Notes: generated by a model not told the origin, from the sequence alone. Positions 35,107 to 60,343 are shown, numbered from the stretch's first letter. The stretch is 64,000 nucleotides of DNA from Candidatus Omnitrophota bacterium (GCA_030650275.1 JAUSEK010000023.1:107581-171580), one strand, 5' to 3'. A program made the numbers and translations.

Positions 35107-38097
35107 ATGAACCCCTTGTTCCGCCAGATCATTTGCTCTATTTTGACCGTTACGTTTGCGTTAACAGCGGTCCCGCCTCTGCACGCCCAAGAGATTTACC
35201 TGCCCCAACCCGGCGTCCGCATTGGCCTAAGCCCCCAATTCAACCCCGCCGTCCTCAAAGGCCTCAAGGTCCATCCCGACAATCCGTTTCGGTTTGATTT
35301 CATATTGGATACCGGTGACGTAGAGACGCAGCATGCTGCGTCTCTACAAAACGAATCAATGAAATTGATCAAATATTTCCTCGCCTCTTTAACCATCCCC
35401 GAACAAGACCTCTGGGTCAACCTGTCTCCTTATGAGAAGGATAGAATTGTTCCTCAATCCTTTGGTCAAACCGAGATGGGACGTGACCTATTAGCCCAGG
35501 ATTATCTGCTCAAGCAGATCACCGCATCACTAATCTACCCAGAGGATGAATTCGGCAAGATCTTCTGGAAGAGGGTCTATGAAGAAGCCAACAAGAGATT
35601 TGGAACAACCAACATCCCGGTCAATACCTTCAACAAGGTCTGGATCGTGCCAGAGAAGGCCGTAGTCTATGAGAACGCGCAAGCAGGCACGGCGTATGTG
35701 GTAGAAAGCCGATTGAAGGTGATGTTGGAAGAGGATTATCTTGCCTTGGCCAACAACCAACCGCCTACCAGGGGACATGTTCCGCAGAACGTGTCCCCAA
35801 GCACCCTGCCAACCTATCAACCATTGAATCCGAAAGCATCCCAGGGAAATCCCCTTAACGCCTCACCAGAGATTAACGCATTAGGTTCTCAAATAGTCAG
35901 AGAGATTGTCATTCCCGCATTAACCAAAGAAATCAACGAAAACAAGAACTTTGCCCAACTAAGACAGGTCTACAACTCCCTTATCTTGGCCACCTGGTAC
36001 AAGAAGAAGATCAAGGACAGCATTCTCTCTCAAGTGTATGCAGATAAGAATAAGATTTCAGGCCTAACGCCAACCAGGGGACATGTTGCTGGCACCGCTA
36101 GTGCCAGTAACGTGTCCCCAAGCACGTTGCCAACCAACCCAGCATTGAATGCGAAAGCACCCCAGGGAAACCCGCCCAACGATGTCGAAGCCATCTACCA
36201 GCAATACCTCACCGCCTTCAAGAAAGGGGTCTACAACTACATCAAAGAAGAGCAGGACCCTGTGACCCGACAGATGATTCCAAGGAAGTATTTTTCGGGT
36301 GGCGTGAAATTCGGTGATGTGGCGATGGTGACTACAAAGGATGCGGCCATGCTTCCGCAGGTGGCTTCCGATCACTCCGCTATTGTTCAGACAAATTTAA
36401 ATCCAGCTGGCCGGGCGATGGCGGCTATACAGGATTGGGAAAGAGTGCGTGCTCGGGCAAAAATTTCTTTCTTCGTCAAAACATTTTTTATTATGGGAGG
36501 GACGGTTATCGGTGCAAGTGCGTTTAAGCATTACAGTCAGAACGTATACGCGGTTCTCGCAATGGGGATGTTGTACGGCTTCACAACCTTCCGTTTTGTT
36601 ATGGACGACTACTTAATAGGAAAAAGTGAACGTGCTGGGGACTATATTACGATTTCAAGGCAACCGAAGGAAAGGGACTCTTTGGGTATTCATGTCGTCC
36701 TAAATTTAAAGGGGCTGGCCGGACAACAGGAGAACGCATATACACTTATCGCGGAAGATGTGGTTAAGGTTGTTTATGAGCTTGTTGCGAACTGGAAACA
36801 AGAGGGTGGGCTTAAAGAAGTAAAATATATTACAGGAGATTCCCCGTTGCTTGTTCAGGAGAGGAGGGGTATGGGAGCAAGGTTTATGCCTAGCATAAAG
36901 CGTCTGCTCAATAAGATCGGCGTGGGGGATGAGGATATTGAAGTGCACAAACGTCAAAGAACAGATAAAAGGCAGTTTATGTTGTGGAAGATATTGTATC
37001 CGCGTGTATGGATGATAAATAATAAAACATATAGTGGCAGATTCAGGATGAATGTTTCCACGCCCGAGGCTCAGCAGGCCTTGCTTGAAAAATTGAGACC
37101 TGTTTATGATGCGTTGAACGGCGTTGATCCTAATGATCCGGAAAAGATGGCCAAGAAAAGGCGAATTTTGTTCGGCGGGAGTTTGGCGCGGGATGAAGAA
37201 GCCCAAGTGGACGATGCCACAGCCTCCGTGCAGGCCGGGCCGGACGCGGCGATGTCAAGGTCACAACAGTCAGAAAATATTAAAAGCATTGCTGATTGGA
37301 TTGATGCTCTCAAGAAAGACAATTATGTTTTGTTCCACCAAACAATGGATGATTCAGCTGAAAGAATATTACAGAGTTATTTTAAAACCAGCCCTCAAAT
37401 TAATGGGATTGCCGCAGTATATACTCGAGAAATTTTGATGGGAAATCTTCAATGGATGTCTATGTCTGCGGGAGAATTTCAGAGACGTCGTTTGGAACAG
37501 GACGGTCCCCTCGGACAAATTCACAAAGGTGCAAATGCGATAGTTGTTCTTGTTTTTCCAAAAAAAGAATTCGGAGGCGTAGATCGTTTTATCCGACTTT
37601 TCGAAGTCTTTGAGATGATTGATGAAAAAATAGGCGGCGATTGGCTTCAAGAAACAGGAGGTATGGGTGTCCCCAATAAATATGTAGCTGGATATATCCA
37701 TCCCACTGATCAATCCATTGATGTGTATATAAATCCAAATAGCGTTGTTAAACCTTTATCTGATGAGCATTGGGGATTGTTAGGCGTTGGAAATGAAAAT
37801 TTGATTGTTTTAAGGGATCAGGCGATAAAAAGTGTTATGAGCAAACAATCCGGCCCTGGAGGTATTGACTTTAAATCCGACAAGGTGGACAGCGCTTTTG
37901 AAATAAAAAGAGAGCCGGAACAAATGGGGACACGTAACGAGTACATGTCCCCATTTGTCGACCCGGTCATGCTGGAGCAATTACAAAACGCCCCGGGGTT
38001 CGTGCCGGTGATCATCAACATCCAGCCCATGACGGATTTGCGGATGTTTTTGGGGCTTCAAGAAAATAAGCCGGAAAAAGAGGAGGCTGTGTTATAA
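35107..38097 (+). CDS. Large secreted protein (996 aa), paralog A: conserved N-terminal domain + variable middle + C-terminal GGIDFKSDKVDSAF...PGFVPVIIN module
   Basis: It has a Sec signal peptide (…ALTAVPPLHAQE). It is a paralog of the 55409..60343 product and contains an internal tandem repeat. Confidence 0.7.
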   Translation: MNPLFRQIICSILTVTFALTAVPPLHAQEIYLPQPGVRIGLSPQFNPAVLKGLKVHPDNPFRFDFILDTGDVETQHAASLQNESMKLIKYFLASLTIPEQDLWVNLSPYEKDRIVPQSFGQTEMGRDLLAQDYLLKQITASLIYPEDEFGKIFWKRVYEEANKRFGTTNIPVNTFNKVWIVPEKAVVYENAQAGTAYVVESRLKVMLEEDYLALANNQPPTRGHVPQNVSPSTLPTYQPLNPKASQGNPLNASPEINALGSQIVREIVIPALTKEINENKNFAQLRQVYNSLILATWYKKKIKDSILSQVYADKNKISGLTPTRGHVAGTASASNVSPSTLPTNPALNAKAPQGNPPNDVEAIYQQYLTAFKKGVYNYIKEEQDPVTRQMIPRKYFSGGVKFGDVAMVTTKDAAMLPQVASDHSAIVQTNLNPAGRAMAAIQDWERVRARAKISFFVKTFFIMGGTVIGASAFKHYSQNVYAVLAMGMLYGFTTFRFVMDDYLIGKSERAGDYITISRQPKERDSLGIHVVLNLKGLAGQQENAYTLIAEDVVKVVYELVANWKQEGGLKEVKYITGDSPLLVQERRGMGARFMPSIKRLLNKIGVGDEDIEVHKRQRTDKRQFMLWKILYPRVWMINNKTYSGRFRMNVSTPEAQQALLEKLRPVYDALNGVDPNDPEKMAKKRRILFGGSLARDEEAQVDDATASVQAGPDAAMSRSQQSENIKSIADWIDALKKDNYVLFHQTMDDSAERILQSYFKTSPQINGIAAVYTREILMGNLQWMSMSAGEFQRRRLEQDGPLGQIHKGANAIVVLVFPKKEFGGVDRFIRLFEVFEMIDEKIGGDWLQETGGMGVPNKYVAGYIHPTDQSIDVYINPNSVVKPLSDEHWGLLGVGNENLIVLRDQAIKSVMSKQSGPGGIDFKSDKVDSAFEIKREPEQMGTRNEYMSPFVDPVMLEQLQNAPGFVPVIINIQPMTDLRMFLGLQENKPEKEEAVL

Positions 38098-38098
38098 T
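38090..38098 (+). promoter_or_regulatory. Extended -10 promoter (TGtTATAAT) 8 nt upstream of the nucleotidyltransferase ATG
   Basis: Read directly from the sequence. It predicts a near-leaderless transcript. Confidence 0.35.
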
Positions 38099-38106
38099 TC
38101 TTAAAT

Positions 38107-38652
38107 ATGGATTTCGAGGCGGTTTTTAAAATAATCCTGGGACAATTTGGCAAATATAACGTCCGTTTCGCGATCATAGGGGGTTTTGCCCTGCACGCGG
38201 CGGGTTTTACCAGGGCCACCAAAGACATTGATTTCCTGCTGCATCATGAAGACAAGGCGAAAGTCAAGGCAGTCCTTGCCTCTTTGGGGTATGAAGCCAT
38301 TCATGAAAGCGAGGACGCCGCGAATTTCTTGAATCGATTGTCCGAGTTGGGACAGATCGATTTTATCATAGCCCGTCGTAAATATGCGTTGGCGATGCTC
38401 GAACGCGCCAAGCCGTATGAGATCATTAAAGGGCATACGGTCAATGTCATTGTGCCGGAAGACATTATTGGTTTGAAGATCCAGGCCTTGCACAATGATC
38501 CCGCGCGGTATGCGCAGGACATGGCGGACATTCAATGGCTGATCAAAAATCACCGGGAACAGCTGAATGTGGGACTTTTACGGGAGTATTTTGATCTATT
38601 CAACTGTGCTGATCAATTGGAAAGAATTTTAAACGAGACCGACCATGCTTAG
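38107..38652 (+). CDS. Polβ-superfamily nucleotidyltransferase (AbiEii- / ANT(2'')-like minimal NTase)
   Basis: It has the GG-x9-R.T.DIDFL motif (FAIIGGFALHAAGFTRATKDIDFLL) and is 181 aa. Confidence 0.5.
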   Translation: MDFEAVFKIILGQFGKYNVRFAIIGGFALHAAGFTRATKDIDFLLHHEDKAKVKAVLASLGYEAIHESEDAANFLNRLSELGQIDFIIARRKYALAMLERAKPYEIIKGHTVNVIVPEDIIGLKIQALHNDPARYAQDMADIQWLIKNHREQLNVGLLREYFDLFNCADQLERILNETDHA

Positions 38653-38848
38653 CGACGAAGAAAAAAGAGAAATGCTGGAAGACGCCCGAAGCGAGTCCCG
38701 CCGCAAGGCATTTGCCCGGGCGAGAACACAGGTCTTCAGTCAGCCGATGACCTGGGAACAGTATTTTCGTTTTTTGCGCGGCGTTGTGAATCTTTTTCCT
38801 CAAAAAGAGTCCTTTAAAAAGATCGAGGGAAGTGCGTTTAAGCTCTAA
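38645..38848 (+). CDS. Small 67-aa protein overlapping the NTase gene by 8 nt (putative partner protein)
   Basis: The two ORFs overlap and appear translationally coupled. I recognise no family for it. Confidence 0.3.
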   Translation: MLSDEEKREMLEDARSESRRKAFARARTQVFSQPMTWEQYFRFLRGVVNLFPQKESFKKIEGSAFKL

Positions 38849-38867
38849 ATCAGCGTATCTATTCGCT

Positions 38868-38895
38868 TTACATTTAAAAACCGTCTCGTTATAAT
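38868..38895 (+). promoter_or_regulatory. Promoter TTACAT-16-TATAAT with -10 ending 9 nt before the hisG ATG
   Basis: Read directly from the sequence. The predicted leader is very short. Confidence 0.45.
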
Positions 38896-38904
38896 ACGCT
38901 CCTT

Positions 38905-39780
38905 ATGAAAAAGTTAAAATTAGGTCTCCCCAAAGGCAGTTTGCAGGACGCCACCGTCGCGCTGTTCGCCAAAGCCGGCTTTAAGGTGACGGTGTCCACG
39001 CGCTCCTATTTCCCCCGCATCGACGATGCCGAGATCGAGCCCGTGCTGTTGCGCGCCCAGGAAATGTCCCGCTACGTCGAGGATGAGACGCTGGATTGCG
39101 GCATCACCGGCAATGACTGGATCTTGGAGAACAACTCCGATGTGACGCGCCTTTCCGAACTTCTCTACGCCAAACAGACCACCAATAAGGTGCGCTGGGT
39201 CTTGGCCGTGCCCGAGGACTCAAAGATCAAGACTATCAAAGATCTGGAAGGTAAAAAGATCGCCACGGAAGTGGTCAATGTCACCAAACAGTATCTGGCC
39301 AAACATAAGGTCAAGGCCGACGTGGAATTTTCCTGGGGCGCCACCGAAGCCAAGGTGGCCACGGGCCTGGTGGATGCCATTGTGGAGTTGACCGAGACCG
39401 GCTCGTCGCTGCGCGCCAATAAACTGCGCATTGTTGACACCCTTTGCGAGTCCACGACCCAGTTCATTGCGAATAAAAAAGCCGCCCAGGACCCCTGGAA
39501 GAAAAAGAAAATGGAGCAGGTCATCATGCTTTTGCAGGGGGCCCTGGCCGCCAATAATATGGTGGGCCTGAAGATGAATTTGCGCAAAAAGGACCTCGAC
39601 AAGGTATTGAAGATCCTGACCTCTTTGCGCAACCCTACGATCTCACATCTGGCCGCGGACAACTGGCTGGCTTTGGAAACAGTGATCGACGAGGGGACCG
39701 TGCGTTCCATTATTCCCCAGCTCAAAGAAGTGGGCGCTGAGGGCATCATCGAGTATTCTTTGAATAAGCTGATCTACTAA
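38905..39780 (+). CDS. hisG: ATP phosphoribosyltransferase (long form)
   Basis: 291 aa with the conserved HisG N-terminus ([10 protein letters not shown]) and C-terminal regulatory domain. Confidence 0.9.
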
Positions 39781-39792
39781 AAAAGGAAAAGT

Positions 39793-39894
39793 ATGCCTTG
39801 CGGAAGAAAAAGAAAACGCATCAAGATCCGCACGCACAAGCGCAAGAAATTGCGTAAGTCGCTGCGTCATTTGAAAAAGCGCGCCACCCGTTAA
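39793..39894 (+). CDS. 33-aa highly basic protein, possibly ribosomal protein bS22-like
   Basis: The product is MPCGRKRKRIKIRTHKRKKLRKSLRHLKKRATR. A Shine-Dalgarno AAGGAAAAG precedes it. Its length and its KRKR..KHRK.L.R pattern resemble mycobacterial/Bacteroidetes bS22. Confidence 0.3.
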   Translation: MPCGRKRKRIKIRTHKRKKLRKSLRHLKKRATR

Positions 39895-39916
39895 GGCGAA
39901 GCGGGGGGAGGTCCGT

Positions 39917-40924
39917 ATGAAACGCTTATGCACGCGTTGGGCGGTTGTTTTGGCTGTCCTGATGCTGGGTTATTTCAGCGCGGGGAAATTTGTTTTCTCC
40001 GCTGCCGGCCCCGTCGTTGACGCCCGTTCCAAGGCGCTGGCCCATTACATCATGGGCATTTCCAATGACCTCAACGGCATGGCCGCCGAGTCCGTTAAAG
40101 AGTACGAAAAAAGCGTTGCTCTCAACGGCCAGGAGCCCTTGCCCCATCTGCGCCTGGCCGCCTATTACGCGCGCCTTGGCCTTCTGGACAAGGCCGTGGC
40201 CCAGCTGAAAACCGTTGTCCGCCTCGACCCCAAAGAGCCCCAGGCCCATTATCTTTTGGCCATGGTGTATTCCTCACAGAACAAGTTTGACCTTGCCGCA
40301 ACCGAATACGAACTGATCCTCAAATCAGCGTCAGCGGACAATCCCGAAAATACCGAGATCTACCTGTATCTGGCCCAACTGTATTCTTCCGAGCGCAAAT
40401 TTGACGAAGCCATTGCCCAGTTCAATAAGATCTTGGAAGTCCAGCCGGACAATGCTTCCGTTTGCTATCTTTTGGGGTCCATCTATGCGGAAACCGGCGA
40501 CAGGGCCAAGGCCAAAGACGCGTTCAAGAAAGTGCTGGCCCTTCAGCCTGATCACGACGGAGCATTGAATTCGCTGGGGTATATTTATGCCGAAGATGGC
40601 GTGAATCTCGACGATGCTTTAAAGATGGCGCGCCGGGCCGTGGATCTTGATCCTTCCAACGGCGCTTATTATGATACGCTCGGCTGGGTGCTGTACAAAA
40701 AAGGGATGAATGCCCAGGCGCTCATGGCTTTGCAAAAAGCAGAGGCCTATATCCAGGACCCGGTGCTTTATGATCACATGGGCGATGTGTATAAAGCCGT
40801 GAAGGAATTCACCCTGGCCCGCAAATTTTGGCACAGATCTCTGGACATGAAACCCGGCCAGGCGGAGGTTTCCCGCAAACTCGGAGAACTCGAGAAAGTC
40901 CACGCCTTTAACGGAACTCCCTAG
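39917..40924 (+). CDS. Secreted tetratricopeptide-repeat protein
   Basis: It has a signal peptide and about 8 TPR units. Confidence 0.7.
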   Translation: MKRLCTRWAVVLAVLMLGYFSAGKFVFSAAGPVVDARSKALAHYIMGISNDLNGMAAESVKEYEKSVALNGQEPLPHLRLAAYYARLGLLDKAVAQLKTVVRLDPKEPQAHYLLAMVYSSQNKFDLAATEYELILKSASADNPENTEIYLYLAQLYSSERKFDEAIAQFNKILEVQPDNASVCYLLGSIYAETGDRAKAKDAFKKVLALQPDHDGALNSLGYIYAEDGVNLDDALKMARRAVDLDPSNGAYYDTLGWVLYKKGMNAQALMALQKAEAYIQDPVLYDHMGDVYKAVKEFTLARKFWHRSLDMKPGQAEVSRKLGELEKVHAFNGTP

Positions 40925-41796
40925 TGCCTTCCATCACGCTTTTTGCACCTGCAAAATTGAATCTTGTTCTGGACGTTTTGGGCAAACGCCCCGACGGTTT
41001 CCATGAACTGCGCACGGTGTTCGAGCGCGTCGGCCTGTGCGATACCATCACATTGACGGCCAATCCCCATGGTCCTATCCGCGTGATTTGCGGCCACCCC
41101 CACGTTCCCAAAGGCCCCAGAAATCTGGCCTTCCGGGCCGCCCGGCAAATACAGCAGGAATATGGCGTCCGCCAGGGGGTGGACATCCGGATCGTCAAGC
41201 GCATTCCCGTGGCCGCGGGCTTGGCCGGCGGGTCCAGCGATGCCGCGGCTGTTTTGATGGGGGTAAACCGTTTGTGGCGGTTGGGTTTAAGTCAAAAAGA
41301 TTTGGTCCGGCACGCCGCCCGCCTGGGCAGCGACGTGGCTTTTTTTATCTACGATACGCCCTTTGCCTTGGGCACGGGGCGGGGGGAGAAGATCAGGCCT
41401 TTAAAATTGGGGGTTAAATTGTGGCATGTGCTTGTCACGCCTAAGGTTAAAATGTATACCAAGGATGTTTTCGCCTGCCTCGCCCGGAAGGCCAAGAGTT
41501 TAAAGTTGACAAAAAAAAAGGATAATGTTAATATTTGTCTTCCTTATTTAAGGAAGAACGATTTTCAGGGCCTTGGGACGGCTTTGTCCAACGACCTTGA
41601 GCTTTCCATTTTGTCTTTAAAGCCGGATCTGATCCGCTTAAAAAAGAAATTGTCCGACGCCGGGGCTGCCGGTGTCTGTTTCTCTGGCAGCGGTCCGTCT
41701 GTTTTCGCCCTGGCGTCCGGCCGGGCGCAGGCCGAGTCGATCAAAGACGGGTTCGATAAGCGTTTCACGCAGGTTTTCGTCGTACCGACGCTGTGA
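40924..41796 (+). CDS. ispE: 4-diphosphocytidyl-2-C-methyl-D-erythritol kinase
   Basis: It has the GHMP kinase motif PVAAGLAGGSSDAAAV and the IspE N-terminus APAKLNL.L.V. Confidence 0.85.
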   Translation: MPSITLFAPAKLNLVLDVLGKRPDGFHELRTVFERVGLCDTITLTANPHGPIRVICGHPHVPKGPRNLAFRAARQIQQEYGVRQGVDIRIVKRIPVAAGLAGGSSDAAAVLMGVNRLWRLGLSQKDLVRHAARLGSDVAFFIYDTPFALGTGRGEKIRPLKLGVKLWHVLVTPKVKMYTKDVFACLARKAKSLKLTKKKDNVNICLPYLRKNDFQGLGTALSNDLELSILSLKPDLIRLKKKLSDAGAAGVCFSGSGPSVFALASGRAQAESIKDGFDKRFTQVFVVPTL

Positions 41797-41824
41797 TCGG
41801 GCGCGCCGGTTGTCAAGGATCGAC

Positions 41825-41898
41825 TGCCCGGTGGTGTAATGGTAGCACCCGAGAATTTGGATCTCGTTGTCCAGGTTCGAATCCTGGCTGGGCAACCA
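41825..41898 (+). tRNA. tRNA-Gln (anticodon UUG), CCA encoded
   Basis: I folded the cloverleaf by hand. The acceptor stem TGCCCGG pairs with CTGGGCA, the D-arm is GTGT..GCAC and the T-arm is CCAGG-TTCGAAT-CCTGG. The anticodon stem CGAGA pairs with TCTCG, the anticodon loop is ATTTGGA, and the gene ends in ACCA. Confidence 0.85.
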
Positions 41899-41911
41899 CG
41901 TTTGCATATTT

Positions 41912-43150
41912 ATGACTGACGTTCGCGCGATCATTTTAGCCGCCGGAAAAGGGACCCGGATGAAGTCCGAGATCCCCAAGGTTTTGCATCCCGTTGCCGG
42001 CCGTCCGGTCATCGCTTACGTTCTGGACATTGTCCGTTCTTTGAAAACTTTTGTTGTCGTCGGGCACGGGGCCCAAAATGTCCGGGCCGCTTTAGGGGAC
42101 GGACTGACCTATGTTGCGCAGGATCGGCTTTTGGGAACGGCGGATGCCCTGCGCCGCGTGGCGCCGCTCTTGAAAGGGTTTCGCGGGCACGTGCTTGTCT
42201 TGTGCGGGGACACGCCGCTTTTGGAAAAACAGACGGTGCAGCGTTTGCTGGCCCAACACCGTCGCAGTCGGGCCGATGCCACGGTCCTGACCGCCCATAT
42301 CCATGATCCGCGCGGATATGGTCGCATCCTCCGCGATGCCGGCGGCCGTATTAGTGCTATCCGTGAACAAAAAGACGCCAGCCCCCGGGAAGCGCGGATC
42401 ACAGAGATCAACGTCGGGGCATATTGTTTTCAGGCGCAAAAGATTTTTGATGTGTTGAGGCGGGTCAAATGGAATGCCCGCAAAAAAGAATTTTATCTGA
42501 CGGACGTCATCGAGGTTTTATTAGCGCGGGGCGGCCGCGTGGGAACGGTCCTGGCCGGGGATGCTTCATTGGCCTTCGGGATCAACACGCGCGTGGACCT
42601 GGCCCGGGCCGAAAGGGTCATCCGGATGCGCATTTTGAGCAAACTGATGCTGGGGGGCGTGACCATCGTGGATCCGGCAACCACCTATGTGGAAACCGGT
42701 GTCAAGATCGGACGGGACACGGTGATCTATCCGTGCACCGTCATTGACCGGGATGTCGTCGTCGGGAAGAATTGCCGCGTGGGACCTTTTGCCCATTTGC
42801 GGCCCGGCACGCGCGTGGGTGACCACGTTGAGATCGGTAATTTCACGGAAGTGTCGCGCAGCCGTGTGGGCAAAAACGTGTTCATAAAACATTTTTCTTT
42901 TTTGGGTGATGCGGTCCTGGGGGCCAATGTCAATATCGGTGCTGGAACGGTGACGGCGAATTTTGACGGCAGGACCAAGAACAGGACAACAATATCCGAT
43001 GGTGCCTTTATCGGCTCGGGCGCTGTTTTGGTGGCGCCGGTCAGCGTCGGCAAGAAAGCCGTTGTGGGCGCCGGTTCGGTCGTGACAAAGGGTAAGAATA
43101 TTCCGGCCGGGGCTGTGGCGTTCGGTGTCCCGGCCAAGATCGTACGGTAG
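41912..43150 (+). CDS. glmU: Bifunctional UDP-GlcNAc pyrophosphorylase / GlcN-1-P N-acetyltransferase
   Basis: It has the N-terminal NTP-transferase motif ILAAGKGTRM and a C-terminal hexapeptide-repeat domain. Confidence 0.9.
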   Translation: MTDVRAIILAAGKGTRMKSEIPKVLHPVAGRPVIAYVLDIVRSLKTFVVVGHGAQNVRAALGDGLTYVAQDRLLGTADALRRVAPLLKGFRGHVLVLCGDTPLLEKQTVQRLLAQHRRSRADATVLTAHIHDPRGYGRILRDAGGRISAIREQKDASPREARITEINVGAYCFQAQKIFDVLRRVKWNARKKEFYLTDVIEVLLARGGRVGTVLAGDASLAFGINTRVDLARAERVIRMRILSKLMLGGVTIVDPATTYVETGVKIGRDTVIYPCTVIDRDVVVGKNCRVGPFAHLRPGTRVGDHVEIGNFTEVSRSRVGKNVFIKHFSFLGDAVLGANVNIGAGTVTANFDGRTKNRTTISDGAFIGSGAVLVAPVSVGKKAVVGAGSVVTKGKNIPAGAVAFGVPAKIVR

Positions 43151-43185
43151 GGGTACGGCATGCCGTGCCCGTATAGAGGAGATGT

Positions 43186-44142: not shown

Positions 44143-44160
44143 AAAAGGCAGGGTCATCCC

Positions 44161-44877: not shown

Positions 44878-44882
44878 TCTAA

Positions 44883-45754: not shown

Positions 45755-45774
45755 CATATAACGAAAGGCTGTCT

Positions 45775-46239: not shown

Positions 46240-46244
46240 TCATC

Positions 46245-46547: not shown

Positions 46548-46552
46548 AACCA

Positions 46553-48315: not shown

Positions 48316-48329
48316 AAACCTTTTGCCCA

Positions 48330-48358
48330 TTGACACGGCCAACCCCAAACTCTATAAT
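48330..48358 (+). promoter_or_regulatory. Exact consensus sigma70 promoter TTGACA-17-TATAAT; the bamA ATG begins 7 nt after the -10 hexamer (leaderless transcript predicted)
   Basis: Read directly from the sequence as cat TTGACA cggccaaccccaaactc TATAAT caaaacc ATG. Confidence 0.55.
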
Positions 48359-48365
48359 CAAAACC

Positions 48366-50711: not shown

Positions 50712-50755
50712 CGGGTCGTCCCGCCGCATTTTTTAAACAACAACAGGAGGGGTGT

Positions 50756-51268: not shown

Positions 51269-51277
51269 CCAAAGCCC

Positions 51278-52312: not shown

Positions 52313-52313
52313 T

Positions 52314-53645
52314 ATGAACCAACACACCATCCAATCACCGGTCACCTTGTCCGGCACGGGGTTGCATACGGGGCAGAAGGTGACGTGCACCTTAAAACCC
52401 GCCGTGGCCGGGGAAGGCGTGCGTTTCGTGCGCATTGACCTGCCCGGGCAGCCGGTCATCAAGGTTTGTCCGTCATCGGCTGTCATGGACGCCGGGGTCA
52501 CGCGCTGCACCATTGTGCAGGCCGACAGTGCCAGGGTATCGACCGTTGAACATTTATTGGCCGCTTTGGGCGGGCTGTCCGTGGACAATGTCACCATCGC
52601 GATCGACGGGCCCGAAGTGCCGGGTCTGGACGGCAGCAGTCTGGATTTCGCGGCGGCCATTAAGAAGGCGGGGATCGTTGAACTGAAAAGCGCCCCCCAA
52701 GATATTTTTGAGATCAGGGAACCGATCATCGTCACCCATAAGAACGCGTTTTTGGCCATCGTGCCCGCGCCGGAATTCAGCGTATCCTATACGCTGGATT
52801 ACGACCACCCGGCTTTGCGTTCCCAGTTTTTCACCTTGTCCGTTGATCCCAAGACCTTTGAACGCGCATTGGCAGGTGCCCGCACATTTTGTCTGCAAGA
52901 GGAAGCGCAAGAGATCCGGGCCAAGGGGCTGGGCAAAGGCGCCGACCGCCACAATACCCTGGTCATGGGCAGGGACGGACCCCTGGACAATTCATTGCGT
53001 TTTCCCGACGAGTGCGCCCGGCACAAGGTTTTGGATATTGTCGGGGACCTGTTTTTGCTGGGATACGGCGTGCGCGGGGCCGTGGTCGCGACCAAGAGCG
53101 GCCATGCCTTGAACCGCGAACTCGTCAAAAAGATCGACGCCCAGCGCAAGAAATATGCCGCGACCGCTTTTGTTCCCGCCTCTCTGCCGTCGGGCGGGCG
53201 TGTTTTTACCATTGACCAGATCCAGAAGATCCTGCCGCACCGTTACCCGTTCTTGCTGGTGGACCGCGTCATTGAGGTCGAACAGGGCAAGCGCGGGATA
53301 GGCGTCAAGAACGTCACCATCAACGACGGGTTCTTCCAGGGGCATTTTCCGGCCAAGCCGGTGATGCCGGGCGTTTTGATGGTGGAAGCCATGGCGCAGA
53401 CCGCCGGGGTCGTGGTTTTGACAAGTGGGCTGCACAGTGGTAAAGTAGCGCTATTCATGGCCATTGAAGCGGTCAAGTTCCGCAAGGTGGTTTCTCCGGG
53501 CGACCAGCTGCTGATGGAAGTTGAGATCATCCGCGACCGCGACCGCACCGCGAGCGTCAAGGGCACGGGCAGGGTGGACGGGGAGATCGTTGTTGAGGCC
53601 GAAATGCTTTTTTCGTACACGGACGCGTCCTACCTTTACGCGTGA
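52314..53645 (+). CDS. lpxC-fabZ: Fused UDP-3-O-acyl-GlcNAc deacetylase / 3-hydroxyacyl-ACP dehydratase
   Basis: The N-terminal ~280 aa are LpxC (TLSGTGLHTG..., HKVLD..GDL) and the C-terminal ~145 aa are the FabZ hot-dog domain (LPHRYPFLLVDRV...GHFP..PVMPGVL). Confidence 0.85.
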   Translation: MNQHTIQSPVTLSGTGLHTGQKVTCTLKPAVAGEGVRFVRIDLPGQPVIKVCPSSAVMDAGVTRCTIVQADSARVSTVEHLLAALGGLSVDNVTIAIDGPEVPGLDGSSLDFAAAIKKAGIVELKSAPQDIFEIREPIIVTHKNAFLAIVPAPEFSVSYTLDYDHPALRSQFFTLSVDPKTFERALAGARTFCLQEEAQEIRAKGLGKGADRHNTLVMGRDGPLDNSLRFPDECARHKVLDIVGDLFLLGYGVRGAVVATKSGHALNRELVKKIDAQRKKYAATAFVPASLPSGGRVFTIDQIQKILPHRYPFLLVDRVIEVEQGKRGIGVKNVTINDGFFQGHFPAKPVMPGVLMVEAMAQTAGVVVLTSGLHSGKVALFMAIEAVKFRKVVSPGDQLLMEVEIIRDRDRTASVKGTGRVDGEIVVEAEMLFSYTDASYLYA

Positions 53646-53650
53646 TCGTT

Positions 53651-54427
53651 ATGTCTTTCATTCATCCAACCGCCATCATTGCTTCTGAGGCCCGTCTGGG
53701 CAAGGACGTGAGCGTCGGGCCTTATACGGTCATTGAAGGCCCTGTCACCATCGGGGATGGGACCGTCATCGGCGCCCATTGCGTTGTCGAAGGTCACACG
53801 ACCTTAGGGGAAAAATGCGAGCTGTATACGGCCGCGGTCATCGGCAGCCGTCCGCAGGACAAAAAACACAACAGCAAAGACCAGGTGACCCTTAAGATCG
53901 GCAACAATAACATTTTTCGTGAATACGTCACCGCCAATCCCGGCACCGTCGAGGGCGGGGGCACGACGTCCATCGGCAATAACAATTTATTCATGGCCTG
54001 TTCCCACGTGGCCCATGACTGCCATATCGGCGATGACTGTGTCCTGGCCAATTATGTCGGCCTCTCCGGCCATGTGACCATTGAGGACCGCGCGCTCATC
54101 GGCGGCCTTTCCGGCGTGCATCAATTCGCCCGCGTCGGTTACATGTCCATCATCGGGGGGTGCTCCAAGGTGAACCAGGACGTGCCGCCTTATTCCATGG
54201 TGGACGGCAATCCCGCGACCTTAAGGGGTTTGAACGCCATCGGGATCAAGCGCGCCGGCATCCCTTCGGATACGGCTTTGGCTTTGCGCCGGGCTTTTAA
54301 AATTCTTTTTAATTCAGGGCTGGCCAGGGGCAATGCCCTCACACAGGTTGAACAACAGATGGGGAGCATTCCGGAAATTCAACGTTTGCTGGAATTCATT
54401 AAAAATTCTAAACGCGGGATCTCATGA
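53651..54427 (+). CDS. lpxA: Acyl-ACP–UDP-GlcNAc O-acyltransferase
   Basis: IHPTAII is followed by hexapeptide repeats and the LpxA C-terminal helical domain. Confidence 0.9.
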   Translation: MSFIHPTAIIASEARLGKDVSVGPYTVIEGPVTIGDGTVIGAHCVVEGHTTLGEKCELYTAAVIGSRPQDKKHNSKDQVTLKIGNNNIFREYVTANPGTVEGGGTTSIGNNNLFMACSHVAHDCHIGDDCVLANYVGLSGHVTIEDRALIGGLSGVHQFARVGYMSIIGGCSKVNQDVPPYSMVDGNPATLRGLNAIGIKRAGIPSDTALALRRAFKILFNSGLARGNALTQVEQQMGSIPEIQRLLEFIKNSKRGIS

Positions 54428-54468
54428 AAACCATAGGATTGATCGCGGGGCGCTGGTCGGCCGAATAA
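54424..54468 (+). other. 14-codon upstream ORF MKTIGLIAGRWSAE that mimics the LpxI N-terminus, with its stop codon inside a perfect hairpin
   Basis: Its ATG overlaps the lpxA stop (ATGA) and it is in frame with lpxI. The hairpin GGTCGGCC-GAATAA-GGCCGACC lies at 54454-54475. Confidence 0.25.
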
Positions 54469-54528
54469 GGCCGACCGTTTAGCGCGCCGGCGAGACAGTG
54501 AGCCGGCCGGGCAGCACAAGGAGGCGGC

Positions 54529-55341
54529 GTGTTGGCTAATAAAACTATCGGCCTTATAGCTGGGAACAGGCAGTTCCCTTTTTTATTTGCCCGGGCCGCC
54601 AAAGACCAGGGTTACAAGGTCGTGGCCGCGGGGGTTTGGGGGGACACCTCCCCGCTATTGGCCGCGTTCGCCGACGATTTCCGGTATTTTTACGTCGGAC
54701 AGATGAAAAAGATGATCGCGTATTTTAAGGACAAGGGGGTCACGCAGGTCATCATGGCCGGACAGGTCAACCCCGATCATCTTTTCGATCCCCGTCTTGC
54801 CCTTGACGAAGAATTCGCTTCCCTGGAGGGATCCCTCAAAGACCGCAAGGCCGACACCATTTTTTCCGCCGTTGCCGGCAGATTGGGCGAACACGGCATG
54901 GCCTTGCTGGATTCAACATTCCTGCTCAAGAAATACCTGGCCCCCAAAGGCACATTGACCCACCGCGGTCCGACGCTGGCGGAACTGGCGGACATGGAAT
55001 TCGGCTTCACCATCGCCAAACTCATGGGCGGCATCGACGTCGGGCAGACGGTCGTGGTCAAGGAAAAGGCCATTGTCGCCATCGAGGCCATGGAAGGCAC
55101 GGACAATGCCATCGCACGCGGCGGCGCCATCGCGCGCGGCGGGGCCGTGGTGGTCAAGACCGCCAAACCCGCCCAGGACAACCGTTTTGATGTTCCTGTT
55201 GTGGGCCCGCAGACCATCCGCGTCATGGCCCGCGTCAAAGCCGCCTGCTTGAGCATTGAAGCCGGTAAGACCCTTCTCATTGACCGCGAAGCAACCGTCC
55301 GTCTGGCCGACCGTCACGGGATCTGCATCGTCGCTGCCTAG
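54529..55341 (+). CDS. lpxI: UDP-2,3-diacylglucosamine hydrolase LpxI (DUF1009 family), GTG start
   Basis: An AAGGAGG Shine-Dalgarno lies 4 nt upstream. It has the conserved N-terminus ...IGLIAGNRQFP... and the Lpx cluster context. Confidence 0.7.
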   Translation: MLANKTIGLIAGNRQFPFLFARAAKDQGYKVVAAGVWGDTSPLLAAFADDFRYFYVGQMKKMIAYFKDKGVTQVIMAGQVNPDHLFDPRLALDEEFASLEGSLKDRKADTIFSAVAGRLGEHGMALLDSTFLLKKYLAPKGTLTHRGPTLAELADMEFGFTIAKLMGGIDVGQTVVVKEKAIVAIEAMEGTDNAIARGGAIARGGAVVVKTAKPAQDNRFDVPVVGPQTIRVMARVKAACLSIEAGKTLLIDREATVRLADRHGICIVAA

Positions 55342-55408
55342 AAAACGCTTTCCCGAAAACCCCTCCAGGGCTTGTTTTAGGTGTATTTATATTCCATACT
55401 TGTAGTAT

Positions 55409-58400
55409 ATGAAATACCCCGTATTCCGTCGTTTAACCTGCGCTTTGGTCATTATTACCTTTACGGCAACGATGACCCCAGCTTTGCACGCACAGGAAAT
55501 TTCGCTTCCTCAGCCCGGCGTCCGCGTATCCTTAAGCCCCGCCTTTAACCCCCCAGTCCTCAAAGGCCTCAAGGTCCATTCCGATAATCCGTTTCGTTTT
55601 GATTTTATCCTTGATCAAGGTGATTCCCTCCCCCTTGTGGGGAGGGCCAGGGAGGGGGACAAACAAGAACAACTCAAACAAGAAGCCAACAAACTCATCA
55701 AATACTTCCTCGCCTCTCTGACCGTGCCAGAGAAAGACCTCTGGGTCAACCTCTCTCCCTATGAGAAAGACCGTATCGTCCCCACATCTTTCGGTCAAAC
55801 CGAGATGGGAAGGGATCTTCTGGCCCAGGACTATCTGCTTAAGCAAATAACCGCATCTCTGATCTATCCAGAGGATGAATTGGGTAAGACCTTCTGGAAC
55901 AGGATCTACCAAGAAGCATCCAGGAGATACCATACAACCAACATCCCGGTCAATACATTCAACAAGGTATGGATCGTACCCGAGAAAGCCGTAGTGTACG
56001 AGAACGCGCAGGCGGGAACGGCTTACGTTGTCGAATCCAGATTGAAGGTGATGCTAGAAGAAGATTATTTGGCATTATCCAAAAATACCGTAGGGGCGCA
56101 ATTTATTGCGCCCGATAAGGGTTCGATGAATCGAACCCCTACGGATGTTAATTCGTTGGGTTCCCAGATTATCCGTGAGATCGTCATCCCCGCCTTAACC
56201 AAGGAAATCAACGAAGGAAAGAACTTCGCCCAACTCCGTCAGGTCTACAATTCTCTGATCCTTGCCACCTGGTACAAGAAGAAGATCAAGGATAGTATTC
56301 TCAATAAAGTTTATTCCGATAGGAATAAAGTTTTAGGCATTGGTTACGATACGCCAACCAGGGGACATGTTGCTGGCACCGCCAGTGCCAGTAACGTGTC
56401 CCCAAGCACGCTGCCAAGCGACCCAGGGTTGAATGCGAAAGCACCCCAGGGAAACCCGCCCAACGATGTCGAAGCCATCTACCAGCAATACCTCACCGCC
56501 TTCAAGAAAGGCGTCTACAACTACATCAAAGAAGAACAAGATCCCATCACCCAACAGATTATCCCGAGGAAATATTTTTCGGGTGGTGTTAAATGGGGCA
56601 TGGCAATGCTTCAAACAACAACAGATCAGGCCATGCTCCCGCAAGTAGTTTCCGATCATGCCGCTATTGTTCAGACAAATTTAAATCCAGCCGACCGTGC
56701 GATATTCAGTAATATCACCAGTAGGGCTGATTCAGCAGCTGCTAGCCGAAGAATTCTATCGTTTAATCAAGCTAAAATGGCATTTGCCGACTTCTTGCTA
56801 GGCAGAGATGGAAAAAGCAAACAAATTGTTGATTTGCCAAGACTAGTGGATAGCCTCAATGCAATGAATAAACCTACAAGAGAAAAATTCCTAGAGTGGA
56901 CTGTGAATATGGATGATAATTGGTATCAGTATGGTTTATCCAATCATAGTAAAGCTAAATATCGTTCGCTGGCATTATTGTTAATGGAAATGGAAAGCCA
57001 TAACCGAAATGCTCCGGCTATGAAACTTTGGAATTTTCTTTCCCAACGGTTTGGAGCGTCTCGTTTTCACACAGAACAATGGGTATCTTGGCAACCTGCA
57101 ATTGACCAAAATCTGTTAAAGGATGTATTACGCATTGCGAAACGATATGGGCTGCGCGCTCATGGGACATTGAATTTTAACATGTTCGGGATCAATAAAT
57201 ATTCTGCTCTCAACGGTTTCTTTCAGAATGAATGGGGAATGCTTAATATCATGATCGATGGGAATCTGTCTCGGGGAAGCATTGGCCCTTTAGCGCCTGT
57301 TGAAGATGAAGGGAATCCGAATGTCGCGGCAGCATTATATGGCCCTTTTTATATTATTGTTGATAAACGTCAAGATGAAGTGCTGCCTGAGAGGCGTTTG
57401 AATGAGCATGACAGAGTTTCTCGAAAGGATCAGTTGATTTATCTTGTCCCAAGCGAAAAAGAAGTACTTTTTTTCAGTGAAGGTATTCGTGAAGCTTTGC
57501 ATTTGGGCCTCATTGATCAGGGAATCGCTGACGAGGTATTATCAAAACTTATGACGTATGGACAGTTCGTGATTAATCAAGCCGCATTGGCTAATCTTGA
57601 AACTCCCGGTGGCATCGACTTCAAATCTGATAAAGTGGACAGCGCCCAATTAAGCCAAGACCGGGCGATGATGACCAGACGAAATTTTCTGTCTTCGTCG
57701 GTTGCGGCAGGTATTGGACTGGTATTACCAAATGCCACCCTTGGGCAATCACTCGCAGGCTTTGGCAGGACGCCTATACCTGATAAACCAGATCAGGTCC
57801 AAGTACGATCTATTACAGGTTTTGAAACCCATGGCAATCGATACAATCTCACTTTTGAGGGGTTTAATCATAATCAGGGCGTAATAAAATCGGCGGGGCG
57901 GCAAGCGCGGGAAGTGGGTCATTTTAATTTCTTTATTTATCCCAATGGGGGATCGATACTAAGGATTGTCGGAGAATTCCCGGGGATCAATGAATCCGCG
58001 CACTTCTTTTCAGTTAACCGGGATCGGGATAAGATCAATTATATAGGCTCCACCGATAACTCTGCAGCGTTAGGGGATATTGCTTTAAACGAAGGGTTAT
58101 GGGTGCTTCTCGGTGAGTATTTAACGACAGGTTCTTTGCCTTCGGAATTTGACCAACAATTTAATATTTTATTTCCTCGTTGGGCGCCACTGAATTCTTT
58201 GACCGATCGATCGCCGTTTAATTTCTCAACAGGGCTCGTTAATGTTTTATCTCCGCGTTTTGTTCCTCCGGATGATAAAACGCTTTTGCTCGTCGGGCAG
58301 CAGCGAGACATCATTGAGGGTTATGTTCGCGCTGTTGGAGTGCCCGGTGGGTTTATGTCCTATACATCCATTAAACATTTGGAGGGATTAACCACGTTGG

Positions 58401-60343
58401 ATGATTACGGCGGCGGAATTCAAGATGCGCAGGACCTGGTTGATCTGTATCCGAATACCGTCTTACAACTTGGTTTGTACATGGTGGATGAATTGAATAA
58501 TGTAAATAGCGGTATATACGATGCGAATATTCGAAAGTTGGGGGAGTGGATCAAGCAAACAAGGCGTCCGGTGTATTTGCGCATTGGCTATGAATTTGAT
58601 TTGCCCGACAATAAGTATAAGCCGCAAGAATATATAAAGGCCTATCAAAAGATCGTCGACATATTGAGACAGCAAAAGGTAACGAATGTATCGTTTGTAT
58701 GGCATTCTGCAGTTTATCCGAGCCAAGAAAAATCTGCGCAGGACTGGTATCCGGGGGATGAATATGTTGATTGGGTCGCGATGACCCGTATGGATCCTTC
58801 ACAAGATTTACAAGGGACTCGGTTAGCTCAGTGGGCCAGAGGGCACAACAAACCTTTTATGATCGCGGAGGCATCTCCGATGGGTCGGAAGACTACGGAG
58901 GAAAAGAAAGTATGGTTCGACACTCTTTTGCCATTTATCAGACAAAACAATATCAAGGCCCTTGGGTATATCAACAGTAATTGGGATGCATTGGGTTTAT
59001 TTTGGGATAGGGGCTGGGGGGACCAGCAAGTGCAGAATGATCCGGCAATTCGTCAATTGTGGATGGACAGAGTCATCCAGGATGGTTCTTATTTGCAATC
59101 GTCAGCAGATCTATTCAGGCAATACCTCAATTTTAACCCAAGCCTTGACCGGGCGATGGCGGCCGCAGATCAGGCTGGGCCGGACGCGGCGATGAAGGTG
59201 ACGCGGCGTACTCTTTTGAGAGGCGCGGGCGCTACGGTGGCGGTGAGGGTATTGGAGGGGGCGTTTGGCAGCCTTGCACTGCAGGCAAGCGGGAACACCA
59301 ACGCTCCCGACAAGAATAGTGTTCTGGCGATGTCTTGGGATATCCTTGATAAGACGGCACTTCGGATGAATTTACCGAAAGCATTGCTTGAGAACATCAA
59401 GGCCGCGCTTCTGGAAGAGGCCACTAAAATATACTCAGAATACAAAGACACGCTTCCTCCAAGAGTACGCTCGATCCTCGGGGATGATTTTAGAAAGCCG
59501 GTTCCTTTTTACGCGCGGTGGCTTGTCAGCAGGTTTATCAAGAATGAGATCGAGCCAAGGATAAAATATCTCAGTAAATACACCGCCTTTCTTGACCCGG
59601 ATGAAGTGGGTATCTTAGATTCTGAGCCGGATTTGGTGAAATATTTCGTTAAAAGAACCGTGAGGTTATACGCTGAAAGAGGTCCGGATTGGATGACCGA
59701 GGAAGAAGCGGCTAAAAGCGTGATCGGTCTGTTTGCTTACTTGATCAAAGAAAGTAATGGCAAGTTTCCTCTTTCGCAGGAGGAAATTGGCAATTATTAT
59801 TATTTATTAAAGAGGGATAAACTCAATACCCTTACAGATTTCGATTTAAAGAATGTAAGGTTGGTGGAGGGTTATCGCGAAAGATTAAAGAAATATTACC
59901 GGATAAAATTTGCTCCGAATGAATTGCGTTGGGATATACAAAGTCAGAGAGGGGAAAGAGAGATTGTTCGGGTGGAATATCTACCGACCCATGATAATGT
60001 GCAAGTTATTGGATATGGTCTTGAAGAGTATAGTAAAATGGATCGTCGAGTGATCGCACTTTTGAGGTTGCGTGTTTATTTATCGGAGAAAAACGGGGGC
60101 GACCATCCGCAGACATCCACAGGCGGTATTGATTTCAATGCCGACAAGGTGGACAGCGCTTTTGCGGTGAAAAATAGCGGCGGCGCGATCAAATTTAACA
60201 TCGACCCCGCCATGCTCCAGCAATTACAGGATTCCCCCGGTTTCGTGCCCGTGATCATCAACGTCAGTCCGCTCAAAGACCTGCCTGCATTTTTGGGATC
60301 AAACGACCCTGTTCCAGTGTCTTCCAAAGCCGCTGCCCTTTAG
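55409..60343 (+). CDS. Large mosaic secreted protein (1644 aa), paralog B: paralog-A-like N-terminal unit + Tat-signal/GH26-like unit + Tat-signal/unknown unit with C-terminal GGIDFNADKVDSAF...PGFVPVIIN module
   Basis: It has a Sec signal peptide and a ~440-aa N-terminal domain homologous to 35107..38097. Internal twin-arginine signal-like segments start at 57668 (MMTRRNFLSS...) and 59204 (MKVTRRTLLRGAGATVAV...). GH26-like motifs (VYLRIGYEFD, WYPGDEYVDWV) are present. Confidence 0.65.
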   Translation: MKYPVFRRLTCALVIITFTATMTPALHAQEISLPQPGVRVSLSPAFNPPVLKGLKVHSDNPFRFDFILDQGDSLPLVGRAREGDKQEQLKQEANKLIKYFLASLTVPEKDLWVNLSPYEKDRIVPTSFGQTEMGRDLLAQDYLLKQITASLIYPEDELGKTFWNRIYQEASRRYHTTNIPVNTFNKVWIVPEKAVVYENAQAGTAYVVESRLKVMLEEDYLALSKNTVGAQFIAPDKGSMNRTPTDVNSLGSQIIREIVIPALTKEINEGKNFAQLRQVYNSLILATWYKKKIKDSILNKVYSDRNKVLGIGYDTPTRGHVAGTASASNVSPSTLPSDPGLNAKAPQGNPPNDVEAIYQQYLTAFKKGVYNYIKEEQDPITQQIIPRKYFSGGVKWGMAMLQTTTDQAMLPQVVSDHAAIVQTNLNPADRAIFSNITSRADSAAASRRILSFNQAKMAFADFLLGRDGKSKQIVDLPRLVDSLNAMNKPTREKFLEWTVNMDDNWYQYGLSNHSKAKYRSLALLLMEMESHNRNAPAMKLWNFLSQRFGASRFHTEQWVSWQPAIDQNLLKDVLRIAKRYGLRAHGTLNFNMFGINKYSALNGFFQNEWGMLNIMIDGNLSRGSIGPLAPVEDEGNPNVAAALYGPFYIIVDKRQDEVLPERRLNEHDRVSRKDQLIYLVPSEKEVLFFSEGIREALHLGLIDQGIADEVLSKLMTYGQFVINQAALANLETPGGIDFKSDKVDSAQLSQDRAMMTRRNFLSSSVAAGIGLVLPNATLGQSLAGFGRTPIPDKPDQVQVRSITGFETHGNRYNLTFEGFNHNQGVIKSAGRQAREVGHFNFFIYPNGGSILRIVGEFPGINESAHFFSVNRDRDKINYIGSTDNSAALGDIALNEGLWVLLGEYLTTGSLPSEFDQQFNILFPRWAPLNSLTDRSPFNFSTGLVNVLSPRFVPPDDKTLLLVGQQRDIIEGYVRAVGVPGGFMSYTSIKHLEGLTTLDDYGGGIQDAQDLVDLYPNTVLQLGLYMVDELNNVNSGIYDANIRKLGEWIKQTRRPVYLRIGYEFDLPDNKYKPQEYIKAYQKIVDILRQQKVTNVSFVWHSAVYPSQEKSAQDWYPGDEYVDWVAMTRMDPSQDLQGTRLAQWARGHNKPFMIAEASPMGRKTTEEKKVWFDTLLPFIRQNNIKALGYINSNWDALGLFWDRGWGDQQVQNDPAIRQLWMDRVIQDGSYLQSSADLFRQYLNFNPSLDRAMAAADQAGPDAAMKVTRRTLLRGAGATVAVRVLEGAFGSLALQASGNTNAPDKNSVLAMSWDILDKTALRMNLPKALLENIKAALLEEATKIYSEYKDTLPPRVRSILGDDFRKPVPFYARWLVSRFIKNEIEPRIKYLSKYTAFLDPDEVGILDSEPDLVKYFVKRTVRLYAERGPDWMTEEEAAKSVIGLFAYLIKESNGKFPLSQEEIGNYYYLLKRDKLNTLTDFDLKNVRLVEGYRERLKKYYRIKFAPNELRWDIQSQRGEREIVRVEYLPTHDNVQVIGYGLEEYSKMDRRVIALLRLRVYLSEKNGGDHPQTSTGGIDFNADKVDSAFAVKNSGGAIKFNIDPAMLQQLQDSPGFVPVIINVSPLKDLPAFLGSNDPVPVSSKAAAL

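Follow-up and report, generated by a model that had tools for sequence, protein, structure and literature searches.

Omnitrophota encode giant multi-enzyme proteins, among them the 'Archaeovorins', which two preprints describe as 10-147 thousand amino acids (kaa) long and as adjoining loci that resemble type II secretion systems (T2SS) (10.1101/2023.11.21.568195; 10.64898/2026.06.07.730766). In this study, two genes of similar design were analysed in a 64,000-nucleotide (nt) stretch of Candidatus Omnitrophota bacterium (GCA_030650275.1 JAUSEK010000023.1:107581-171580), hereafter the window. The genes are W1 (35107-38097, plus strand), which encodes a protein of 996 amino acids (aa), and W2 (55409-60343, plus strand), which encodes one of 1644 aa. 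Both proteins consist of a predicted signal peptide, a conserved N-terminal domain (the head), internal cassettes (the cargo; two in W1 and three in W2) and a short conserved C-terminal module (the tail). They belong to an undescribed family that is phylum-wide and multi-copy in Omnitrophota, in which a constant head and tail bracket variable cargo and in which cassettes are exchanged between family genes and loci. The giants share with this family the phylum, a signal peptide or transmembrane (TM) segment and the tiling of unrelated, mostly cytoplasm-type enzyme domains. The family differs from them in size, reaching only 0.8-3.2 kaa compared to at least 10 kaa, and in context: the giants are described as flanked by a locus resembling T2SS or type IV pili together with pilZ, whereas pilin-like genes adjoin only one of 80 loci of the present family. 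Keyword searches of the accessible text of both preprints (10.1101/2023.11.21.568195; 10.64898/2026.06.07.730766) returned no head, no tail and no D-x-A-M linker, the short motif that marks cassette borders in this family.

The family, itself undescribed, is a variation on the modular secreted-effector design. Polymorphic toxins (CdiA/TpsA with VENN; Rhs with PxxxxDPxGL) likewise combine a signal peptide and a conserved N-terminal secretion domain with a short border motif, recombination-swapped variable parts and possible orphan fragments, which is an analogy of design and not homology. In the Omnitrophota proteins, however, the variable part is internal, made of several cassettes and bounded at its end by the constant tail; the passengers are ordinary enzymes and not toxins, no immunity gene is adjacent, and no Pfam match to two-partner secretion (TPS) or RHS/YD domains was obtained in a cargo domain scan that covered 34 long members and the window proteins. 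MARTX toxins also have constant ends bracketing a recombining mosaic of effectors, and their domains are released by processing. Their type I secretion system, glycine-rich repeats and cysteine protease domain have no Pfam match in the Omnitrophota family, which has an N-terminal Sec signal instead. Integron cassette arrays are comparable in that gene-sized units of foreign composition, separated by short conserved junctions, differ between close relatives. In the present family, in contrast, in-frame fusion turns the units into a single protein, and the junctions showed neither an integrase nor a folded site resembling attC.

Translation confirmed both open reading frames (ORFs), and BLASTP bore out the original prediction that the two proteins share their ends and have unrelated middles. 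Identity was 73% over 447 columns for the head (E = 0) and 47% over 81 columns for the tail (E = 2e-17), with no alignment between the middle regions. The N-termini, read by eye, have the features of Sec signal peptides: a basic n-region, a hydrophobic core of ~15 residues and a predicted cleavage site between LHA and QE (aa 1-27 ending in ...PPLHA, 35107-35187 in W1; aa 1-28 ending in ...PALHA, 55409-55492 in W2; both on the plus strand). The same position is hydrophobic in the family consensus. The term 'giant', which had been applied to both, overstates their lengths of 996 and 1644 aa. The DNA encoding the two heads is 75-83% identical, with dN 0.155, dS 0.93 and dN/dS 0.17 (NG86, 419 aligned codons), which establishes W1 and W2 as old paralogues under purifying selection. 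The possibility that they are assembly duplicates of one locus is ruled out by the DNA identity and dS. W1 itself was absent from the public gene index.

A search with the head yielded 1,641 homologous proteins with varied C-terminal extensions. Matches with a named source carried almost entirely the label Omnitrophica, with one labelled Minisyncoccia, at 50-65% identity. When one genome per species was considered, at least 595 head loci were found, and the metagenome-assembled genomes (MAGs) carrying them were labelled nearly without exception as Omnitrophota/Omnitrophica or 'uncultured Planctomycetales', apart from one Elulimicrobium. Copy number reached at least nine in one MAG, and some loci contain tandem arrays. 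Viral contigs held only 3 family matches, which indicates that this is not a phage family. The search with the tail profile, which covered 1.84 billion representatives, gave 4,533 clusters. The tail was C-terminal in all 150 matches listed of these 4,533, at most ~85 residues from the end and usually fewer than 10, and the longest of the proteins has 2,927 aa. The head stood at the N-terminus in 32 of 49 tail-bearing proteins of at least 600 aa, and the others look truncated at the 5' end. Across 80 genomic loci, 57 complete ORFs (784-3165 aa) showed the order head, cargo, tail, making this architecture the rule and not an oddity of the window. The original prediction was correct in recognizing two paralogues but overlooked the phylum-wide family, its exchangeable and apparently whole-gene cassettes and the D-x-A-M linkers, as well as the internal tail-start copy, the Tat-type signals (twin-arginine translocation) and the GH26 domain of W2 described below.

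Several exceptions to this architecture are split by a single in-frame stop. Such a stop (TAA, TAG or TGA) occurs in L026 (4692), L068 (16749), L077 (889, adjoining a run of N) and L033 (10974), with cargo and tail continuing downstream. Possible explanations of these split genes are pseudogene formation, sequencing error and displacement of orphan fragments. Some tail-bearing ORFs in the genomic loci have no head. A protein of 531 aa in L021 (13738-15333) combines a prepilin-like N-terminus (..HNLA followed by FTIIELVIVISVL) with a canonical C-terminal tail, which demonstrates that a tail can be present where a head is not; at this locus the family gene adjoins four pilin-like genes in tandem. 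The few MAG genes split by one stop (L026, L068, L077) are what speaks for regarding the whole family as an artefact of chimeric assembly or as decaying fused pseudogenes. This explanation has next to no probability and is effectively refuted by the same architecture in dozens of independent assemblies, by purifying selection on the head, by the conserved catalytic residues of one cassette and by the repeated recovery of one family protein, both described below.

The exchange of cassettes was observed at a locus orthologous to that of W1. The family protein encoded there, P0354, has 1630 aa and is present in three groundwater data sets that are independent of one another. Its gene lies in the order laccase, CutA, AhpC, SurA-like (minus strand), family gene, HisG and TPR, and the HisG gene shares 92% nt identity with that of the window. 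The head of P0354 is 75-80% identical to those of both W1 and W2, and the 3' end of its tail shares 93% nt identity with W1. The cargo of P0354, nevertheless, is unrelated to that of W1: it contains the W2 cassette with a twin-arginine translocation (Tat) signal and a GH26 domain (58% aa and 68% nt identity), flanked on either side by a cassette that has no relation to any in W2. Different cassettes at the same locus, together with the same cassette at different loci, show that cassettes are exchanged between family genes.

According to Pfam, the scanned cargo includes ABC1 and Ser/Thr kinases, ResIII/SNF2/DEAD helicases, S-adenosylmethionine (SAM) methyltransferases, PLD, DnaJ and M48 peptidase, and also the RNAP alpha C-terminal domain, phosphoribosyltransferase, HAD, HD, HEAT, HATPase, sugar transferase and GH26. 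The greater part of the cargo belongs to no known family. Cassettes A and B of W1 and cassettes A and C of W2 had no relatives in Pfam or the PDB and almost none among the fetched family proteins. The cargo of 46 of the 57 family proteins contains no TM-like segment. The GH26 domain of W2 scored 23.4 bits in Pfam against a cut-off of 20.2 and is related to the beta-1,3-xylanase XYL4 (PDB 2ddx, E 3e-34). Both catalytic Glu residues (the E in RIGYEFD and the E in MIAE) are invariant among 13 homologues, indicating purifying selection on at least one cassette.

The cassettes appear to be roughly whole genes, running from their own Met, sometimes with their own Sec or Tat signal, to a natural C-terminus. 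Tat or Sec signals are located at or right after the linker Met in W2 (twice), P0069, L002, L008, L037 and L076; both W2 signals are of the Tat type (Pfam TAT_signal, E 9.7e-5). The end of the GH26 cassette coincides with the end of standalone Omnitrophota GH26 homologues of ~320 aa, and the position following the linker Met shows an excess of N, A, S, T and K, which resembles native N-termini. Cytoplasm-type enzymes and retained signals are poorly explained by simple secretion, and they motivate a rival interpretation in which the protein is an effector polyprotein: after export it would be delivered to another cell, a host or prey of the host-dependent or predatory Omnitrophota, and in the cytoplasm of that cell it would be cut between A and M of D-x-A-M, after which the Sec/Tat cassettes would be re-exported by the victim's translocons and attack the envelope from within. 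Effector-like cargo (Ser/Thr and ABC1 kinases, PLD, DnaJ, SNF2/ResIII helicases, methyltransferases, RNAP alpha C-terminal domain), intact signals exactly after the linker Met and native-like cassette N-termini are in line with this interpretation, as is the host-dependent lifestyle reported for Omnitrophota in the preprints (10.64898/2026.06.07.730766; 10.1101/2023.11.21.568195). We nevertheless regard it as unlikely: neither an injection apparatus nor a protease was identified, a hydrophobic signal-like segment follows only ~5% of strict D.AM motifs, and the signal peptides could be relics of recent capture.

Cassette borders are marked by the D-x-A-M motif, which was observed 131 times (as D.AM) versus 5.4 expected. 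Two to three sites are present in the head's own tail after RKYFSGG; others lie between cassettes and 1-10 residues before the GGID[FL] of the tail, and the motif recurs inside the tail as DPAML. It was found at most 30 residues upstream in 64% of 252 tails, compared to 8.7% of control windows. The linker QAGPDAAM is common to W1 and W2, and (Q/V)(A)GPDAAM occurs at junctions in W1, W2 and P0354. In W1, the linker (...VQAGPDAAM, 37222-37254, plus strand) has a GC-content of 0.82. In W2, the first linker (57608-57670, plus strand) reads GGIDFKSDKVDSAQLSQDRAM and begins at aa 734 with GGIDFKSDKVDSA, which repeats part of the tail start internally and is followed by DRAM; its DNA core, GACCGGGCGATG, or a variant with one mismatch, is common to three linkers. 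The second W2 linker is double (SLDRAMAAADQAGPDAAM, 59144-59194, plus strand, GC 0.73). Linkers in the window thus reach GC 0.73-0.82, versus 0.38-0.46 in the flanking cassettes. GC at third codon positions is 0.27-0.50 in the flanking cassettes, ~0.57 in the head and 0.72-0.77 in housekeeping genes.

These junctions also bear on a reading of each gene as an operon within one ORF, in which the linker ATGs are internal starts and the cassettes are made also or mainly as separate cytoplasmic proteins, the signal-bearing ones being exported normally. Every linker ends in ATG, the residue after this Met is native-like, and the Ala codon just before the ATG is biased to GCS; such internal starts would also make sense of the Tat signals. 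However, the GC-rich linkers contain no Shine-Dalgarno-like or promoter-like sequence before these ATGs; AT-rich or TATAAT-like sequence does precede several true gene starts of the window. Moreover, dozens of genes keep an uninterrupted frame, the longest of 3,165 codons, and this implies that translation of the whole ORF is under selection. We consider the operon reading very improbable. As a separate observation, the starts at 35107 (W1), 38107, 38905 and 55409 (W2) lack a Shine-Dalgarno sequence and have a TATAAT-like box ~7-12 nt before the ATG; this pattern suggests that initiation in the source organism is leaderless or independent of Shine-Dalgarno sequences.

Neither constant module could be assigned to a known family, in agreement with the original prediction. 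Searches with the whole W1 and W2 proteins returned no Pfam or NCBIfam match to head or tail at E ≤ 1. For 43 separate heads no family was found in the same databases, with a weak sub-threshold match to DUF896 on a head helix in 18 of the 43 (best E 0.004), and 22 isolated tails gave nothing at E ≤ 10. The head profile matched no PDB sequence, and neither module matched a PDB fold. AlphaFold modelled the head alone at a predicted local distance difference test (pLDDT) score of 61; within a 600-aa family member the overall value was 62, with 80-90 in the head core. The predicted head is a mixed alpha/beta fold without a beta-helix, and it carries columns invariant across the family, including RKYFSGG. 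The tail consensus, of ~60 aa, is GGID[FL]...IKFxxDPAMLxQLQNAPGFVPVIINIQPxxxLxxFLG. Comparison of the head's own tail with the C-terminal module by hhalign (P = 0.003, aligning GGxDx and D-x-A-M) is suggestive of a diverged copy of the latter, which is not established.

The tail had been proposed to be a sorting, anchoring or secretion tag. Its strictly terminal position favours this proposal, while the lack of a cognate gene nearby, the lack of a TM helix with a basic tail and the moderate AlphaFold confidence do not. In particular, 'PGF' is followed by only ~8 hydrophobic residues (VPVIINIQ), with no TM helix and no basic cluster. Substrates of sortases, exosortases, archaeosortases and rhombosortases (LPXTG, PEP-CTERM, PGF-CTERM, GlyGly-CTERM) differ in that the Omnitrophota tail has no NCBIfam match and no cognate sorting enzyme recurs among the neighbours of the 80 family loci. 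A closer parallel in layout is offered by C-terminal domain (CTD) cargo of the type IX secretion system (T9SS) of Bacteroidota, with a Sec signal, diverse passengers, a terminal module of ~60-100 aa and dozens of paralogues away from the machinery. However, the Omnitrophota tail matches no CTD model (TIGR04183 Por_Secre_tail or the Pfam CTD families). The CTD is an Ig-like beta-sandwich; the tail is modelled as coil with two short helices, at a confidence (pLDDT 54-78) too low to argue against a fold. The family also has an additional obligatory head of ~400 aa and largely cytoplasm-type passengers. No PorK/L/M/N, Sov or PorU/V was detected among the window ORFs scanned, mostly from ~30.7 to ~62.7 kb. 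The co-occurrence of the tail with a sortase-, exosortase- or T9SS-like gene, which the original prediction had proposed to check, was absent among the neighbours in the 80 loci.

The tail can also be compared with the docking modules of cellulosomal enzymes, which similarly combine a signal peptide, a variable catalytic part, a small C-terminal docking module and many paralogues. This likeness underlies a further rival, a self-assembling display scaffold in which the tail would dock on another head or on a common scaffold, as dockerin does on cohesin, to form an enzyme-decorated surface coat or filament. Consistent with it, head and tail are far more conserved than the cargo and common to all paralogues in a genome, the tail is dockerin-sized and terminal, and its predicted short helix and extended hydrophobic strand would resemble a docking peptide. 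Dockerin-type giant proteins are known in the phylum, and the tail-bearing L021 protein has its prepilin-like N-terminus in place of a head. On the other hand, no dockerin sequence, calcium-binding repeats or cohesin scaffold was identified in the family, and the cytoplasm-type enzymes are explained no better. The scaffold is rather unlikely.

The interpretation we favour, tentatively and at slightly below an even chance, is that W1 and W2 are paralogues in an Omnitrophota-wide family of Sec-exported modular carriers, with the constant head and tail as handles and the cassettes as payload. Export by Sec is predicted from the signal peptides and agrees with the lack of TM-like segments in the cargo of 46 of 57 proteins, and the roles of handle and payload are probable ones judged from sequence. 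The cleavable signal peptide would direct Sec export of the carrier, and head and tail would then act as common handles for machinery encoded elsewhere, which would move the protein across the outer envelope, fix it to the envelope or serve an assembly step. In this scheme the tail would have the role of a C-terminal domain for secretion or sorting. The D-x-A-M linkers would be junctions for cassette recombination and possibly also sites where the cassettes are cut apart.

Several observations weigh against the carrier interpretation. Many cassettes are ATP- or SAM-dependent enzymes of cytoplasmic type, which is odd for an extracytoplasmic protein, and signal peptides in the interior of a protein whose head is exported pose a problem of topology. 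The model of the tail (pLDDT only 54-78) shows helix and coil and not a folded sorting domain. The Ala codon of the motif is biased to GCG/GCC (77% vs 51%), so the constraint may act partly on nucleic acid rather than protein. No conserved partner was found: when 829 neighbouring ORFs were clustered, no neighbour family occurred in more than 6 of the 80 loci, and the family is not accompanied by a dedicated gene for a sortase, for secretion or for a protease. Finally, the window context consists of core housekeeping genes. This context is in accordance with another rival, in which the proteins are envelope-resident multi-enzyme proteins for the cell's own physiology, small cousins of the giant signal-peptide or TM proteins, with head and tail serving only folding or anchoring and with no delivery. 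Their palette (methyltransferase, HATPase, HAD, HD, glycosyl hydrolase/transferase) matches that of the giants as described for them (10.64898/2026.06.07.730766). Rapid cassette turnover, foreign base composition and many divergent paralogues, however, fit genes of conflict or interaction better, and a purely physiological role seems distinctly unlikely. A broader conjecture, which we consider doubtful, is that head, linkers and tail form a previously unknown export or delivery system that captures whole genes, in frame, as cassettes of a secreted polyprotein, releases them between A and M of D-x-A-M and re-targets some by Sec or Tat, and that the same in-frame concatenation through linkers builds the giant Omnitrophota genes.

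The remaining features of the two genes, all on the plus strand, were as follows. In W1, the head extends over 35188-36420 and includes its own tail (RKYFSGG at 36283-36303, then DVAM, DAAM and GRAM). Cassette A (36421-37221, aa 439-705) has a GC-content of 0.46, compared to 0.55 in the genome, and contains two hydrophobic helices (36463-36603); cassette B (37255-37857, aa 717-917) has a GC-content of 0.38. The tail, GGIDF...DPVMLEQLQNAPGFVPVIINIQPMTDLRMFLG, occupies 37858-38055. In W2, the head (55493-56704) likewise includes its own tail (RKYFSGG at 56567-56587, then DQAM and DRAI). Cassette A (56705-57607, aa 433-733, GC 0.41) is unrelated to the P0354 cassette at the same position. Cassette B (57671-59143) comprises the Tat-type signal MTRRNFLSS... 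(57671-57751), a domain of ~170 aa and the GH26 beta-1,3-xylanase-like catalytic domain (aa ~953-1237, about 58256-59134). Cassette C (59192-60109), with the Tat-like signal MKVTRRTLLRGAGA... at its start, is unrelated to the last cassette of P0354, and the tail, GGIDFNADKVDSAF...IKFNIDPAMLQQLQDSPGFVPVIINVSPLKDLPAFLG, lies at 60122-60298.

W1 is flanked by a gene for a SurA-like peptidyl-prolyl isomerase and by an AbiEii-type nucleotidyltransferase gene (type IV toxin-antitoxin toxin, 38107-38652), which lies between W1 and hisG. At the orthologous locus of a relative (L081-L083) the AbiEii-type gene is absent, and hisG directly follows the family gene. W2 is flanked by LpxI and by a PIN toxin module (60512-61128; a PIN-domain toxin gene, then a 73-aa ORF as possible antitoxin) directly downstream, followed by a class II (Asp/Asn/Lys-type) aminoacyl-tRNA synthetase. 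Both family genes thus precede toxin-antitoxin-type genes. IspE, GlmU, Prs, L25, Pth, DnaB, BamA, LpxD, LpxC-FabZ and LpxA are encoded between W1 and W2. Upstream of W1, a single ORF of 263 aa (32742-33533) encodes CutA1 joined to an AhpC/TSA thioredoxin-like protein that has a signal-like segment of its own. In the relative (L081) the two are encoded separately, by genes of 104 and 167 aa; the joint ORF is another in-frame gene fusion in the source genome. A coiled-coil-rich ORF of 451 aa (30674-32029) has no Pfam family and a GC-content of 0.37 versus 0.55 in the genome, and is probably foreign DNA.

The heads additionally contain palindromic elements inserted in frame. A repeat of ~110-135 nt with a perfect 10-19-bp hairpin (GGGGACAYGT-loop-ACRTGTCCCC) and a conserved 3' part was always found in frame and in sense orientation, encoding PTRGHV..VSPSTLP..NAKAPQGNPPN. 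The window has three full copies, all inside W1 or W2: one in a head loop of W1 (35747-35862, plus strand, aa ~214-250), a second in W1 (36054-36190) and one in W2 (56341-56474). A shorter hairpin is inserted in frame in the W1 tail (37920-37958, plus strand) in place of the usual IKF strand. The nhmmer search revealed 24 copies in 1.07 Mb, of which 22 are in three head loops and the other 2 in inter-domain linkers of a pyruvate-dehydrogenase E2 gene (L030, 13211-13698). The element also occurs in L001, L005, L006, L021, L053, L054, L064, L067, L069, L073, L076 and L081-L083, and it had no match in Rfam. In its in-frame insertion it behaves like the Rickettsia palindromic elements, which are likewise inserted in frame into genes (PMC10969869). 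A second, REP-like palindromic element (CCGTAGGGGCGCAATTTATTGCGCCC ... GGGTTCGATGAATCGAACCCCTACGG) is present in a head loop of W2 (56088-56144), in frame, and encodes VGAQFIAPDKGSMNRTPT. An insertion of this type was also observed in P0004; P0354, a close homologue, lacks the element.

The Omnitrophota are nanobacteria that are abundant, uncultured and dependent on hosts, and their action on other cells and their huge multi-enzyme genes are unexplained. The carrier family provides a compact and very numerous model of the giant-gene design and direct evidence for the trade of gene-sized enzyme cassettes between loci. Its two constant modules can be used for finding the missing export or anchoring machinery, and the D-x-A-M junction is a short motif whose possible role in cleavage or recombination is open to testing. 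A secretion or docking role of the tail, if true, would make it a new signal of this kind, and if the linkers are true processing sites, they would represent a rare bacterial polyprotein strategy.

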